Below are positions 3,935 through 57,635 of a DNA stretch of 64,000 nt, one piece after another; positions within the stretch are counted from its first letter, which is position 1, and every line of letters begins with the position of its first letter. Source of the DNA: Escherichia coli. Its GTDB lineage: Bacteria > Pseudomonadota > Gammaproteobacteria > Enterobacterales > Enterobacteriaceae. The stretch lies in assembly GCF_003790525.1 (NCBI RefSeq), contig NZ_CP033635.1; one strand, 5' to 3'. The position numbers were made by a program, and so were the translations under genes. The notes under the pieces are model-generated. The model saw only the letters and a program-made list of their open reading frames with translations. It was not told where the DNA came from and did no database searches.

Positions 3935-4018
3935 GTAGGTATGATAAGACGCACCAGCGTCGCATCAGGCATTGTGTACAGAGCGGCGGATGAGGCAAAA
4001 ACGCCTTATCCGCCCGAA
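3935..4018. repeat. REP/BIME element cluster between ygaY and proX
   Basis: Sequence gtaggtatgataagacgcaccagcgtcgcatcaggc ... ggcggatgaggcaaaaacgccttatccgcccgaat matches the E. coli REP palindrome family. Confidence 0.7.
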
Positions 4019-15525: not shown

Positions 15526-15930
15526 ATGTCCGTAATGTTACAAAGTTTAAATAACATTCGCACCCTCCGTGCGATGGCTCGCGAATTCTCCATTGACGTT
15601 CTTGAAGAAATGCTCGAAAAATTCAGGGTTGTCACTAAAGAAAGACGTGAAGAAGAAGAACAGCAGCAGCGTGAACTGGCAGAGCGCCAGGAAAAAATTA
15701 GCACCTGGCTGGAGCTGATGAAAGCTGACGGAATTAACCCGGAAGAGTTATTGGGTAATAGCTCCGCGGCCGCCCCACGCGCTGGTAAAAAACGCCAGCC
15801 GCGTCCGGCGAAATATAAATTCACCGATGTTAACGGTGAAACTAAAACCTGGACCGGTCAGGGCCGTACACCGAAGCCAATCGCTCAGGCGCTGGCAGAA
15901 GGTAAATCTCTCGACGATTTCCTGATCTAA
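15526..15930 (+). CDS. stpA: H-NS paralogue StpA
   Basis: 134-aa [37 protein letters not shown]... Confidence 0.95.
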
Positions 15931-36115: not shown

Positions 36116-36478
36116 TGGTGGAGCTGGCGGGAGTTGAACCCGCGTCCGAAATTCCTACATCCTCGGTACTACATGCTTAGTCAGTCTTTACATTCGCTTG
36201 CCAGCTGCGGACGGACACGCCACTAACAAACTAGCCTGATTAAGTTTTAACGCTTCAACCCCAGGCAGGGCTTCCACGCGATCTCTTTTGGGTTTGACCT
36301 CTCTTGATCCCCGTCCTAAGAGCGGAGGCTAGGGAGAGAGGGCTCTAAGCAGGTTATTAAGCTGCTAAAGCGTAGTTTTCGTCGTTTGCGACTATTTTTT
36401 GCGGCTTTTTACGAGGCCAACCGCCCCTCGGCATGCACCTTGGGTTTCGCAAATCCCGTCGAATCCAGAATCAGCCCC
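36116..36478 (-). ncRNA. ssrA: tmRNA (SsrA), 363 nt
   Basis: Reverse complement reads GGGGCTGATTCTGGATTCGACGGGATTTGCGAAACCC...GCGGGTTCAACTCCCGCCAGCTCCACCA; includes the tag reading frame region. Confidence 0.95.
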
Positions 36479-50940: not shown

Positions 50941-51306
50941 TTAATTTAATCGTATTGTGCTGGCATTTTCATCAGCCCCTTTTTGCCATACTTCATGCAG
51001 TTGGCTGGCATTTTCAACATTGTTGCAGCTGGCAGGAAAGCTTTTACCGGAAAGTCCTCGGGCATAAGTAAAATCGGTCTGGCAAGTTTTCTTTTGTCCT
51101 TCGGCATATCCTTTAAGGTATAGACCGCGATCCGCCTGTGAATCGCTAAATGCATCGTCATCTTTTATGGCGTTGCCCGATATCGCATCTTCCATACCAA
51201 CATCATACCAGTCGGTGCTGGTCAAGGTTGGCGCGTGAGTATAAGGATCAATCTGACATCCGCTAACCAGTAAAGCCAACAAGGGGGCGATAAACTTTTT
51301 CATCAT
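50941..51306 (-). CDS. yfiL: Lipoprotein YfiL
   Basis: ORF MMKKFIAPLLALLVSGCQ... (lipobox); start at the ATG preceded by AGGAG, shorter than the track ORF. Confidence 0.85.
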   Translation of the reverse strand: MMKKFIAPLLALLVSGCQIDPYTHAPTLTSTDWYDVGMEDAISGNAIKDDDAFSDSQADRGLYLKGYAEGQKKTCQTDFTYARGLSGKSFPASCNNVENASQLHEVWQKGADENASTIRLN

Positions 51307-51351
51307 TTCTTTCTCCTTTTTCAAAGCATAGCGGATTGTTTTCAAAGGTGG

Positions 51352-51421
51352 TGTAAATTTATTTATACATAAACAAGGGTTAAAAGCGCGAATAAATTGC
51401 TTGTGTAAAGAAAAATGTACG
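51352..51421 (+). promoter_or_regulatory. aroF operator region with TyrR boxes
   Basis: TGTAAAtttattTATACA (51352-51369) and TGTAAAgaaaaaTGTACG (51404-51421) match the TyrR box consensus TGTAAA-N6-TTTACA, upstream of aroF. Confidence 0.8.
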
Positions 51422-51515: not shown

Positions 51516-52586
51516 ATGCAAAAAGACGCGCTGAATAACGTACATATTACCGACGAACAAGTTTTAATGACTCCGGAACAACTGAAGGCCGCTTTTCCAT
51601 TAAGCCTGCAACAGGAAGCCCAGATTGCTGACTCGCGTAAAACCATTTCAGATATTATCGCCGGGCGCGATCCTCGTCTGTTGGTAGTATGTGGTCCTTG
51701 TTCCATTCATGATCCGGAAACTGCTCTGGAATATGCTCGTCGATTTAAAGCCCTTGCCGCAGAGGTCAGCGATAGCCTCTATCTGGTAATGCGCGTCTAT
51801 TTTGAAAAACCCCGTACCACTGTCGGTTGGAAAGGGTTGATTAACGATCCCCATATGGATGGCTCTTTTGATGTAGAAGCCGGGCTGCAGATCGCGCGTA
51901 AATTGCTGCTTGAGCTGGTGAATATGGGACTGCCACTGGCGACGGAAGCGTTAGATCCGAATAGCCCGCAATACCTGGGCGATCTGTTTAGCTGGTCAGC
52001 AATTGGTGCTCGTACAACGGAATCGCAAACACACCGTGAAATGGCCTCCGGGCTTTCCATGCCGGTTGGTTTTAAAAACGGCACCGACGGCAGCCTTGCA
52101 ACGGCTATTAACGCTATGCGTGCCGCCGCCCAGCCGCACCGTTTTGTTGGCATTAACCAGGCAGGGCAGGTGGCGTTGCTACAAACTCAGGGGAATCCGG
52201 ACGGGCATGTGATCCTGCGCGGTGGTAAAGCGCCGAACTATAGCCCTGCGGATGTTGCGCAATGTGAAAAAGAGATGGAACAGGCGGGACTGCGCCCGTC
52301 TCTGATGGTAGATTGCAGCCACGGTAATTCCAATAAAGATTATCGCCGTCAGCCTGCGGTGGCAGAATCCGTGGTTGCTCAAATCAAAGATGGCAATCGC
52401 TCAATTATTGGTCTGATGATTGAAAGTAATATCCACGAGGGCAATCAGTCTTCCGAGCAACCGCGCAGTGAAATGAAATACGGTGTATCCGTCACCGATG
52501 CCTGCATTAGTTGGGAAATGACCGATGCCTTGCTGCGTGAAATTCATCAGGATCTGAACGGGCAGCTGACGGCTCGCGTGGCTTAA
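51516..52586 (+). CDS. aroF: Tyr-sensitive DAHP synthase AroF
   Basis: [33 protein letters not shown]...; track ORF over-extended upstream. Confidence 0.95.
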
Positions 52587-52596
52587 GAGGTTTATT

Positions 52597-53718
52597 ATGG
52601 TTGCTGAATTGACCGCATTACGCGATCAAATTGATGAAGTCGATAAAGCGCTGCTGAATTTATTAGCGAAGCGTCTGGAACTGGTTGCTGAAGTTGGCGA
52701 GGTGAAAAGCCGCTTTGGACTGCCTATTTATGTTCCGGAGCGCGAGGCATCTATGCTGGCCTCGCGGCGTGCAGAGGCGGAAGCTCTGGGTGTACCGCCA
52801 GATCTGATTGAGGATGTTTTGCGTCGGGTGATGCGTGAATCTTACTCCAGTGAAAACGACAAAGGATTTAAAACGCTTTGTCCGTCACTGCGTCCGGTGG
52901 TTATCGTCGGCGGTGGCGGTCAGATGGGACGTCTGTTCGAGAAGATGCTGACACTATCGGGTTATCAGGTGCGGATTCTGGAGCAACATGACTGGGATCG
53001 CGCGGCTGATATTGTTGCCGATGCCGGAATGGTGATTGTTAGTGTGCCAATCCACGTTACTGAGCAAGTTATCGGCAAATTACCGCCTTTACCGAAAGAT
53101 TGTATTCTGGTCGATCTGGCATCGGTGAAAAATGGACCATTACAGGCCATGCTGGCGGCGCATGATGGTCCGGTGCTGGGGTTACACCCGATGTTCGGCC
53201 CGGACAGCGGTAGCCTGGCAAAGCAAGTTGTGGTCTGGTGTGATGGACGTAAGCCGGAAGCATACCAATGGTTTCTGGAGCAAATTCAGGTCTGGGGCGC
53301 TCGGCTGCATCGTATTAGCGCTGTCGAGCACGATCAGAATATGGCGTTTATTCAGGCTCTGCGCCACTTTGCTACTTTTGCTTATGGGCTGCACCTGGCA
53401 GAAGAAAATGTTCAGCTTGAGCAACTTCTGGCGCTTTCTTCGCCGATTTACCGCCTTGAGCTGGCGATGGTTGGGCGACTGTTTGCCCAGGATCCGCAAC
53501 TGTATGCCGACATTATTATGTCGTCAGAGCGTAATCTGGCGTTAATCAAACGTTACTATAAGCGTTTCGGCGAGGCGATTGAGTTGCTGGAGCAGGGCGA
53601 TAAGCAGGCGTTTATTGACAGTTTCCGCAAGGTGGAGCACTGGTTCGGCGATTACGCACAGCGTTTTCAGAGTGAAAGCCGCGTGTTATTGCGTCAGGCG
53701 AATGACAATCGCCAGTAA
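52597..53718 (+). CDS. tyrA: Chorismate mutase / prephenate dehydrogenase TyrA
   Basis: 373-aa [33 protein letters not shown]... Confidence 0.95.
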
Positions 53719-53760
53719 TAATCCAGTGCCGGATGATTCACATCATCCGGCACTTTTTCA

Positions 53761-54921
53761 TCAGGTTGGATCAACAGGCACTACGTTCTCACTTGGGTAA
53801 CAGCCCAATACCTTCATCGAACGGGTGATTTCCCCTAACTCTTTCAATGCTTTTTGCATTTCCGCTGATTCAAGATTGGCCTGAATATCCAGATAAAACA
53901 TCTCTTCCCACGGATTACCGTGAATCGGACGTGATTCCAGACGGGTCATAATTAGACTGTGGTTGCGCAGTACCAGCAACGCTTCAACCAGTGCACCAGC
54001 TTGTTGTCCGGTCGCCATTAACAACGTCGTTTTCGCCGGAACCTGGTCAGAAACGTTAATGGCTTTACGTGCCAACACCACAAATCGGGTGAAGTTTTGT
54101 CGCTGATTCGCTTCAATACGCTCCAGTACCTGCAAACCGTACAAAGTGCCGCCAGCTTCGCTTCCCAACGCAGCAACATGCGGTGATTTTGCCTGTGCAA
54201 CCTTTTCCATTGCCGCAGACGTACTTTCGGTATATTCAATCTTCCAGTGCGGATAACGATTAAGGAATTTGCTGCATTGCTGGAATGGCTGCGGATGGCT
54301 GTAGACCGTATTAATGGTGGATAAATCAGTAGTGCCGGAGACCAACAAACAATGATCGATAGTTAACGTCATCTCGCCAACAATCGACAAACTGGTATGT
54401 TGCAGCAGATCGTAAACGTCGTTTATGGCACCGGAGCTGGTATTTTCAATCGGTACGACGGCATAGTCGGCCTGGCCGGTTTCCACCTGATTAAAAATAT
54501 CGGCAAATTTGGCGCAGCCACTTTCAATGAATTGCTCAAAGTGACGCGCAGCGTACTGACGAGCGGCAAGATGTGAATAGGAGCCTTTGGGGCCGAGAAA
54601 AGCGATGCGTGCTGAGTGCGGATTAATTTTATTGAGATGTTGCTGGAGCAAAGCCTGCTGAGTTAATACGGAATCTTCAATGATGAGCTGGAACAGGCGA
54701 GTAATGTAATGGGCGTCCAGATGGTGCGCTTTACCGAGCGTAATTAATCTTTCCAGCAAATCGCGTTCACGATCAATATCACGTACCGGGCGATGCGAGA
54801 GTAGTTTGGCTTTTCCCACCTCGACGGCCAGTTCGCGTCGCTCTGCCAGTAATGCTAATAATTTTTCATCCAGCGCGCTGATTTTCTCTCGCAGCGCCAG
54901 TAACGGGTTTTCCGATGTCAT
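53761..54921 (-). CDS. pheA: Chorismate mutase / prephenate dehydratase PheA
   Basis: 386-aa [35 protein letters not shown]... Confidence 0.95.
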
Positions 54922-54942
54922 AGTGTTGCCTTTTTGTTATCA

Positions 54943-54975
54943 ATAAAAAAGGCCCCCCGATTTGGGAGGCCTTAT
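54943..54975 (-). terminator. pheA attenuator terminator
   Basis: On the - strand: aggcctccc-aaatc-gggggggcct hairpin followed by a T-run, between pheL and pheA. Confidence 0.85.
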
Positions 54976-55019
54976 TGTTCGTCTTCGCATTCTGTTTCAC
55001 ACGACGAAACGCCTCCCAT

Positions 55020-55067
55020 TCAGGGGAAGGTAAAAAAGAATGCGAAGAAAAACGGTGTGTGTTTCAT
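55020..55067 (-). CDS. pheL: pheA leader peptide PheL (Phe-rich)
   Basis: - strand atgaaacacacaccgtttttcttcgcattcttttttaccttcccctga = MKHTPFFFAFFFTFP; 7 Phe codons. Confidence 0.9.
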   Translation of the reverse strand: MKHTPFFFAFFFTFP

Positions 55068-55170
55068 GTTTGTTTCCTTAAGTGACTTTAGTACAGTACC
55101 CGTACTGTTTTCACGCTGTCAACAAAAAACGCGCCCGAAGGCGCGTTGGCGATACACTCAATATAAAGGA

Positions 55171-55566
<396 letters not shown>

Positions 55567-55782
55567 TCAAAATGTGTGATGGAAATCTCATAATCTTGTC
55601 ACTTTTTGTCAACGAATCTTTTTTGTGAGAAATCGCAGGAAGAGGTGTTTTTTTACTTGAGGAATATCTCAAAGCGAGCCATATTTGATGAGATCGATAG
55701 TGACTAAATCGCTTCAGTTTCACAACTAACAGAATAAAAAAACGGCAGCTCAAGGGCTGCCGTTTTGTGTTTCAGGTTTTTG

Positions 55783-56520
55783 TTATGTATTGCTGCTGTT
55801 TGCAGCGATGATTTTCGCTACTTTTTCAGCTTGCGCATTCATCTGCATCTGACGGTATGCATTTTCCATCAGCGGCAGCGCATCACGCGTAGCCTGGGTA
55901 TCCGGGTAGTCGCGCAACATGCCTTCTACGCGGTTAACGACGGCAACCCATGCACCACGTTCTGTATAGTACTCGGCAACGGAGTATTCATATTTCGCCA
56001 GACGATCTTTCAGGAATACCAGACGTTTGGTGGCATCGGTGGTGTACTGACTGTTCGGATAGCCGCGCACCAGTTTGGAAAAGTCACTAAACGCAGCTCG
56101 TGCATGTTGAGGATCGCGATCGCTACGGTCAACGCCAAAGAACCCTTGCAGCGCACTGTCATCCAGCGCCATATTGGTCAGGCCACGCATGTACATGACA
56201 TAATCGATATTCGGATGGGTCGGGTTAAGGCGAATAAAACGATCGATGGCAGCCTGTGCTAACGGCAAATCGGCGTTTTTATAGTAGGCGTAGATGAGAT
56301 CCAGCTGCACCTGCTGCGAATACGGACCAAACGGATAGCGATTATCTAACGCTTCCAGTTGCGTTATTGCCTGTCTCCAGTTACCGTCCTGCAGCTTTTG
56401 TTGTGCAGTCGCGTAAATTTCATTTGGCGGATTATCAGGTACTTCTTCCTTTGACCCCGAGCAACCCGCCAAAAACAGGCTTAGTGTGGCGGCTGCCACC
56501 AGATATTTCATGCGCGTCAT
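55783..56520 (-). CDS. bamD: Outer membrane protein assembly factor BamD (YfiO)
   Basis: 245-aa ORF with lipobox (LFLAGCSGS) and TPR-like repeats. Confidence 0.95.
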
Positions 56521-56654
56521 GACGTTTTGACTTTCCTCAAAATGTAATACGGGAGATTCTCTGTTCCTGCTCCCGGTTAAGACCAGCTACAATAGCACAC
56601 TATATTAAACGGCAAAGCCGTAAAACCCCAACGATAAACGAAGAAGCAGTATAT

Positions 56655-57635
56655 ATGGCACAACGAGTACAGCTCACTGCAACGGTGTCCGAAAACCAAC
56701 TCGGTCAACGCTTAGATCAGGCTTTGGCCGAAATGTTCCCGGATTATTCACGTTCGCGGATAAAAGAATGGATCCTCGACCAGCGCGTGCTGGTTAACGG
56801 CAAAGTTTGTGATAAGCCGAAAGAAAAAGTATTGGGTGGCGAGCAGGTTGCCATCAACGCTGAGATTGAAGAAGAAGCGCGTTTTGAACCGCAGGATATC
56901 CCGCTGGATATCGTCTATGAAGATGACGATATCATCGTCATTAATAAACCGCGCGACCTGGTGGTACATCCTGGCGCGGGTAACCCGGATGGCACGGTAC
57001 TGAATGCATTGCTTCATTATTATCCGCCCATTGCCGATGTACCGCGTGCAGGCATCGTCCATCGTCTGGATAAAGACACCACTGGCCTGATGGTTGTGGC
57101 AAAAACCGTTCCGGCTCAGACGCGTTTAGTCGAATCTTTGCAAAGGCGTGAAATTACTCGTGAGTATGAAGCGGTGGCAATTGGTCATATGACCGCTGGC
57201 GGTACAGTAGATGAACCAATCAGCCGCCACCCGACCAAACGTACCCATATGGCGGTGCATCCGATGGGCAAACCAGCGGTGACTCACTATCGCATCATGG
57301 AACACTTCCGTGTGCACACGCGTCTGCGGTTGCGTCTGGAAACTGGACGTACGCACCAGATCCGCGTGCATATGGCCCATATCACTCATCCGCTGGTGGG
57401 CGATCCGGTTTATGGTGGCCGTCCGCGTCCGCCAAAAGGTGCTTCGGAAGCGTTTATCTCCACGCTGCGTAAATTTGACCGCCAGGCGCTTCATGCAACC
57501 ATGCTGCGTCTTTATCACCCGATCTCCGGTATCGAAATGGAATGGCATGCGCCTATTCCACAAGATATGGTGGAGCTGATTGAGGTGATGCGCGCCGATT
57601 TCGAAGAGCATAAAGATGAAGTGGACTGGTTATGA
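56655..57635 (+). CDS. rluD: 23S rRNA pseudouridine(1911/1915/1917) synthase RluD
   Basis: 326-aa ORF with S4 domain and catalytic HRLDKDTTG motif. Confidence 0.95.
   Translation: MAQRVQLTATVSENQLGQRLDQALAEMFPDYSRSRIKEWILDQRVLVNGKVCDKPKEKVLGGEQVAINAEIEEEARFEPQDIPLDIVYEDDDIIVINKPRDLVVHPGAGNPDGTVLNALLHYYPPIADVPRAGIVHRLDKDTTGLMVVAKTVPAQTRLVESLQRREITREYEAVAIGHMTAGGTVDEPISRHPTKRTHMAVHPMGKPAVTHYRIMEHFRVHTRLRLRLETGRTHQIRVHMAHITHPLVGDPVYGGRPRPPKGASEAFISTLRKFDRQALHATMLRLYHPISGIEMEWHAPIPQDMVELIEVMRADFEEHKDEVDWL

Follow-up and report, generated by a model that had tools for sequence, protein, structure and literature searches.

The pheL leader and pheA transcription attenuator of Escherichia coli, with the common Thr4 allele, in a 64,000-nt genomic window

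The window considered here, by which we mean the whole 64,000-nt stretch of DNA that was analysed, carries a short regulatory region on its minus strand, where a leader, an attenuator and pheA are co-oriented. Read along that strand from 55200 to 54860, the order is the end of raiA, the raiA terminator, TTGACA, TACTGT, a Shine-Dalgarno (SD) sequence, pheL, a hairpin with its U-run, a second SD sequence and pheA. The neighbouring genes are raiA, bamD and the convergent tyrA and aroF, in the order that is the E. coli arrangement. The regulated gene, pheA (53761..54921, minus strand; AUG at 54921), encodes 386 aa and is a full-length match to NF007910 (825 bits; cut-off 577), so that its product is the bifunctional chorismate mutase/prephenate dehydratase PheA; an SD sequence, AAAGG (54933..54929, minus strand), can be read ahead of it, and its AUG lies 22 nt past 54945, the last U of the unbroken part of the attenuator's U-run.

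The identity of the intervening segment could be addressed with confidence. The Rfam family RF01859 (Phe_leader) matches at 54943..55068 on the minus strand with 132.2 bits (gathering score 55; E = 1.4e-24), the match spans model positions 1-125 of 125, and it was reproduced in a scan of the whole window with Rfam. When 301 nt around the leader were compared with complete E. coli genomes, this query was present in 5425 of 5426, always on the chromosome and with 100% identity to many of the complete genomes; the RefSeq annotation at the matching loci reads “Phe leader region,” pheL, pheA and raiA. An earlier note on this DNA had placed a pheL leader and attenuator ahead of pheA at 54943-55067, an interval that opens at the leader AUG, closes where the U-run ends and agrees with the Rfam match. 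Its coordinates stand, and to them we add the strand, which it had left unstated and which is minus. The proposal itself is borne out by RF01859, by PheA downstream, by the RefSeq annotation, by folding and by compensatory changes.

The leader ORF pheL (55020..55067, minus strand) has 15 codons and a UGA stop, runs from AUG at 55067..55065 to UGA at 55022..55020, and translates as MKHTPFFFAFFFTFP; the same CDS is annotated in RefSeq E. coli. Phe occupies codons 6, 7, 8, 10, 11, 12 and 14, that is, seven of the 15, as had been claimed beforehand, and these codons form the Phe sensor, UUU UUC UUC GCA UUC UUU UUU ACC UUC (55026..55052, minus strand). An SD sequence, AAGGA (55075..55079, minus strand), lies 7 nt before the AUG, and most related loci have AGGA or GGA at this position. 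With its floor of 20 aa, the program-made ORF list leaves pheL out, and the earlier remark that the leader was too short to appear there was correct. Across the six frames of the 64 kb, this is the sole site with seven Phe codons in 10, where about 3e-4 such sites are expected from base composition, and pheL tops the Phe count (7/15) among the 840 short ATG ORFs of 8-30 aa in the window, the runner-up having 5/30. The Phe-rich ORF is far above chance. The second densest Phe frame in the window (15631..15666, minus strand; six of 10 codons) was rejected as the antisense of a Glu-rich GAA/GAG run, which is carried by a 134-aa H-NS/StpA-like ORF at 15526..15930 (plus strand); a further Phe-dense frame at 51293..51325 (plus strand) was dismissed as a T-rich stretch upstream of aroF.

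The last codons of pheL, 14-16, read UUC_CCC_UGA (55020..55028, minus strand), an end that is prone to +1 shifts and slow to terminate (PMC3082878; PMC5373646). Gurvich et al. (2011; PMC3082878) defined a group of enterobacterial pheL leaders that share a conserved nucleotide sequence with UUC_CCC_UGA at its end, and the leader in the window has this ending; CCC_UGA is present in 21 of the 24 species aligned below. Following the +1 frame from the end of pheL adds 51 residues up to a TGA at 54868..54866, which by our count lies 53 nt past the pheA AUG, versus 80 nt in PMC3082878. Tagged PheL products, which include +1 frameshift and read-through forms, have been found at 9.0 and 4.85 kDa versus 3.26 kDa (PMC5373646), and the 51-residue +1 extension and a 16-residue 0-frame read-through fit these size differences.

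Upstream of pheL, a putative -35 element, TTGACA (55117..55122, minus strand), and a putative -10-like element, TACTGT (55093..55098, minus strand), are separated by an 18-nt spacer. Of 23 other Enterobacterales loci, 22 have TTGAC at the corresponding position (TTGACA in 18, TTGACG in three), and TACTKT is conserved in many species. A sigma-70 consensus scan of 54700..55400 called no promoter, because TACTGT matches TATAAT at only three of six positions; conservation and prior knowledge nevertheless lead us to infer that TTGACA/TACTGT is the pheL-pheA promoter, with transcription probably starting near 55087 and giving an attenuated RNA of about 140 nt. The intrinsic terminator of raiA, AACGCGCC-TTCG-GGCGCGTT followed by a T-run (55128..55147, minus strand; terminator scan), is located 80 nt upstream. 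Its T-run shares bases with the pheL -35 element, and this back-to-back arrangement of raiA terminator and -35 is kept in most of about 23 Enterobacterales loci. Yersinia artesiana is without the block of raiA terminator, TTGACA and TACTKT upstream of pheL, and pheA is still downstream there; IS disruptions around pheL-pheA have been described in Yersinia species (PMC3082878).

The leader RNA can be divided into the segments of a classical attenuator. Segment 1 (55030..55053, minus strand; Rfam consensus and minimum free energy (MFE) fold) is the 5' strand of the 1:2 pause/protector helix and overlaps the Phe codons, and the 3' strand of that helix is the distal part of segment 2 (54977..55000, minus strand; Rfam consensus, folds and alignment). 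The core of segment 2 for the antiterminator is GGGAGGC (55011..55017, minus strand; constrained folds): in the terminated state its GGGA pairs with UCCC (55027..55024), and when the ribosome stalls all seven bases pair with GCCUCCC (54970..54964) in segment 3, within the terminator's 5' arm. The whole 2:3 antiterminator (54963..55018, minus strand) has a free energy of -23.3 kcal/mol, excludes the terminator, and is the MFE structure under masks at F8, F10 and F12. The terminator hairpin that had been claimed between the leader and pheA was found by terminator scan at 54973..54949 (minus strand): AAGGCCUCCC (54973..54964), the loop AAAUC and GGGGGGCCUU (54958..54949) form the 3:4 helix of 10 pairs, seven of them G-C, at -18.5 kcal/mol when folded alone, followed by UUUUAUU. 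The U-run UUUUUUAUU (54942..54950, minus strand; sequence and terminator scan), with T118-T122 invariant in the alignment, is the expected end of the attenuated transcript.

Folded as a whole, the 145-nt leader has an MFE of -51.7 kcal/mol, versus -31.6 ± 3.9 kcal/mol for dinucleotide shuffles (z = -5.2; none of 200 shuffles folds as well), and the 1:2 helix alone has a free energy of -31.2 kcal/mol. Folding of the alternative antiterminator and terminator, the check suggested in the earlier note, gave the expected ribosome-dependent switch. We mimicked the ribosome by forcing 28 nt to be single-stranded, from -15 to +12 around the first base of the A-site codon, a footprint that is an assumption. 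In the equilibrium fold of the full leader the mean terminator pair probability is 0.97 without a ribosome or with the A site on UGA, and falls to 0.09, 0.09, 0.12 and 0.001 with the A site at F6, F7, F8 and F10, respectively; with the F6-F10 stalls the MFE structure is the long-range pairing of GGGAGGC with GCCUCCC. When the stall is placed at F12 or F14, the equilibrium fold of the full-length leader again predicts the terminator. A co-transcriptional model was represented by transcripts ending after segment 3 and before segment 4. Here, stalls at F8, F10 and F12 give the 2:3 antiterminator (-23.3 kcal/mol, versus -18.5 kcal/mol for the terminator), and with no ribosome, or with the ribosome at the stop, segment 2 is paired or covered and segment 3 is single-stranded, available for the terminator when segment 4 is made. 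Because the co-transcriptional version antiterminates at F12, we treat the termination predicted at the F12 and F14 stalls as a limit of equilibrium folding and not as biology. In silico, then, the antiterminator is predicted to exclude the terminator and to form when the ribosome stalls on Phe codons, and the dependence of the modelled switch on ribosome position agrees with the classical attenuation that had been proposed for this locus.

To place the leader among its relatives, species-representative genomes were scanned with the DNA pattern TTYTTYTTYNNNTTYTTYTTYNNNTTYCC, which listed at least 120 loci. Most of these are chance matches in T-rich genomes (Bacteroidota, Clostridia, Pelagibacter); among the matches listed, about 24 are real leaders, in Enterobacterales and with a Phe-rich ORF of 15-19 codons. 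They come from Citrobacter, Enterobacter, Klebsiella, Leclercia, Superficieibacter, Escherichia albertii, Yersinia, Serratia, Pantoea, Erwinia, Tatumella, Pectobacterium, Brenneria and Acerihabitans, and a Kluyvera locus was missed by the ATG-ORF filter. Because the pattern demanded FFF-x-FFF-x-F-P(CC), conservation of the Phe layout among the matches is circular and was not counted; it is the flanks and the pairing partners that are informative. In all 22 loci whose sequence extends far enough, the leader is followed by a PheA homologue (MT.ENPLL...) that begins 145-168 nt downstream of the leader AUG. In an alignment of 24 leaders the mean column identity is 86%, and across these species the N-terminal codons of pheL vary freely and the Phe run, itself part of the search pattern, is kept.

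The terminated conformation was tested on this alignment as the Rfam consensus, which comprises the 1:2 helix, two small internal hairpins and the terminator. Across the 24 species 97.0% of its cells are paired, versus 45-61% when the partners are slid by 1-3 columns; both sides have changed at six pairs (22 cells), and none of 500 column shuffles reaches the covariation score. The 22 pairs of the 1:2 helix are 96.6% paired with compensatory changes at four of them, and the terminator is 98.3% paired with compensatory changes at two (AU/GC in 10 species and CG/UA in five). For the antiterminator, the GGGAGGC:GCCUCCC core is nearly invariant and pairs in 23-24 of the 24 species, and the 10-pair 2:3 helix is 90.4% paired. 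The whole antiterminator structure is 87.8% paired in these species and has no covariation, 191 of 500 shuffles reaching the observed score; because its core barely varies, covariation is neutral on this structure. In five species the last position of the segment-3 arm has changed from C to U: a G-U wobble is kept in the antiterminator, and a U-A pair is kept in the terminator via a matching G-to-A change in segment 4. In these aligned sequences the pattern is as expected of a base that serves two partners.

Taken together, the evidence points to the pheL-pheA ribosome-mediated transcription attenuator of E. coli, a reading to which we give a probability of about 97%; nothing contradictory to it was found. 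The accepted E. coli pheL-pheA model holds a 1:2 pause, a 2:3 antiterminator, a 3:4 terminator and dependence on pheL translation (PMC3082878), and Hudson and Davidson (1984), Gavini and Pulakat (1991) and Gowrishankar and Pittard (1982) are the primary work as cited there. Transcription would start at the promoter just past the raiA terminator, and in the nascent leader segment 1, with the Phe codons, would fold onto segment 2 as the hairpin that, according to published work, pauses RNA polymerase; a ribosome would then translate the 15-codon pheL ORF. With charged tRNA-Phe plentiful, the ribosome would pass the seven Phe codons and reach the UGA, segment 2 would be covered or re-paired with segment 1, and segment 3 would pair with segment 4, so that the GC-rich terminator and U-run would end transcription about 20 nt before pheA. 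With charged tRNA-Phe scarce, the ribosome would stall on the Phe codons and occupy segment 1; the free GGGAGGC would then pair with GCCUCCC once segment 3 is made, the 2:3 pairing would block the terminator, and RNA polymerase would continue into pheA. Control of read-through by translation and Phe supply, and polymerase pausing, are taken from the literature on K-12, which differs by one base, and would by analogy apply to the window. In E. coli K-12, pheA expression is greatly elevated under Phe limitation, and Phe-replete basal expression is about 10% and dependent on ribosome release at the pheL UGA (PMC3082878). The pheL transcriptional pause has a half-life of about 17 s, about 1.9-fold longer with NusA, and in the compensatory mutant of the hairpin pausing was not clearly recovered (PMC9291695).

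Could the locus be explained without a leader that senses Phe? The hairpin alone resembles any Rho-independent terminator, and a T-rich region in a window with so many short ATG ORFs might offer a Phe-rich mini-ORF by chance next to an ordinary intrinsic terminator, for example that of raiA. This is next to impossible in our estimation: raiA owns a separate terminator, the one at 55147..55128, the dense Phe stretch is expected so rarely and is found here only, and pheL, which has an SD sequence and a start codon, keeps its frame in 24 species. The Phe codons of pheL, moreover, pair with a downstream segment in which compensatory changes are present, the RF01859 match is full-length at 132 bits, and translation of PheL is documented by ribosome profiling and tagged-peptide data (PMC5373646). 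Control of pheA mainly by a DNA-binding repressor (of the TyrR type, or a “PheR repressor”), or by a riboswitch or T-box in place of leader translation, appears just as improbable. No TyrR box (TGTAAA-N6-TTTACA, up to two mismatches) was found in 55080..55150 at the pheL promoter, even though TyrR-box-like sites are present at the nearby aroF-tyrA operon, at 51352..51369 and 51404..51421 (plus strand). The first of these has one mismatch and the second two, and both stand a short way upstream of aroF (start 51447), as one would expect of a TyrR-repressed aroF-tyrA; the window as a whole has four TyrR-box-like matches versus 2.7 expected, which is not above chance. Riboswitch and T-box families gave no match at E <= 1 in 52000..58000 and none at the gathering score window-wide. 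A pheR regulatory locus was formerly postulated, but pheR was shown to code for tRNA-Phe and no repressor (Gavini and Davidson 1990, as cited in PMC3082878), which fits attenuation, and in the folding model the switch in structure depends on where the ribosome stands.

A further suggestion would leave the leader in place and change its output: the PheL peptide, or its +1 frameshift or read-through product, could be functional, either as a TnaC-like nascent peptide or as a small protein. The shift-prone UUC_CCC_UGA end, with CCC_UGA kept in so many of the aligned species, invites this thought; K-12 has 15% +1 frameshifting that is stimulated by the nascent peptide, and release-factor mutants change basal pheA expression (PMC3082878), and K-12 ribosomes lie at heavy density on the pheL UGA(A) stop (PMC5373646). 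Against this, neither the length nor the sequence of the +1 product is conserved among enterics, and Salmonella tRNA-Pro mutants with altered frameshifting have unchanged pheA, the frameshifting being incidental according to the authors (PMC3082878), and strains with a fully active RF2 variant give no extended PheL products (PMC5373646). The conserved CCCC pairs with GGGA(GG), at 98.9% paired, and this alone explains the nucleotide conservation. We consider a functional peptide or frameshift product extremely unlikely.

The attenuator shares its logic with those of trpL, hisL, leuL, thrL and ilvL, which likewise have a codon-enriched leader ORF, a pause hairpin, mutually exclusive antiterminator and terminator and a ribosome as the sensor; pheL differs from them in its regulatory codons (Phe), its sequences and its Rfam families. 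The leader of the pheST (Phe-tRNA synthetase) operon, pheM, is also rich in Phe codons and attenuates transcription in E. coli. It differs from pheL in locus, sequence and regulated genes, and lies outside this window. An unusually long and stable 1:2 helix, at the -31.2 kcal/mol given above, sets pheL apart from the amino acid leaders just named, and the term “hyperstable” has been used for it; pheM is among the leader pause sites of the same study (PMC9291695).

The Rfam scan of the window yielded several other RNAs. An rRNA operon lies on the plus strand, with 16S at 61510..63051, a tRNA at 63137..63209, StyR-44 at 63290..63398 and the 5' end of 23S from 63406; the sRNA RyfD (58374..58512, plus strand) is just upstream of clpB, and a further tRNA is found at 28181..28253 (plus strand). 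The tmRNA gene ssrA occupies 36116..36478 on the minus strand, and an integrated element, of the kind often found at ssrA, may occupy the DNA past its 3' end (below 36116). A match to naRNA4 at 3938..4015 (minus strand) is borderline (60.0 bits, gathering score 59.5), and matches to Arrc14 (27.7 bits, gathering score 99), sX6, sraA and engA were dismissed as far below gathering.

The closest known system is the pheL-pheA of E. coli K-12 (RF01859), which is the same locus with the same gene order of raiA, pheL and pheA with convergent tyrA-aroF. It has the same 15-codon ORF, seven Phe codons, 1:2, 2:3 and 3:4 segments and UUC_CCC_UGA end, and differs in the Thr4 codon only: relative to a K-12 derivative (MC4100), 300 of the 301 nt are identical and the sole difference is a C in the window for a T in K-12 at position 55057. 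As a result, codon 4 of pheL reads ACA (Thr) in the window and AUA, a rare Ile codon, in K-12; the substitution lies 5' of the Phe run and of every paired segment. The PheL peptide of E. albertii is identical to that of the window (MKHTP..., Thr4), and as E. albertii also encodes Thr4, this may be the ancestral state. The Thr4/Ile4 polymorphism, or the slow, shift-prone UUC_CCC_UGA, may tune the coupling of the leading ribosome to RNA polymerase and hence basal pheA between lineages, an idea we hold to be very doubtful; frameshifting at the pheL end is without effect on pheA expression (PMC3082878). If it were true, the Phe-replete basal level of pheA would differ between E. coli lineages.

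The element is already known, being the common Thr4 allele of the E. coli pheL leader and pheA attenuator, and its confirmation moves no open question forward; the value lies in correct annotation only. The pheA attenuator is among the founding examples of ribosome-mediated transcription attenuation, and what the locus illustrates is that a 15-codon leader missed by ORF finders can be recognised by a reader, with exact coordinates now given for each functional segment.
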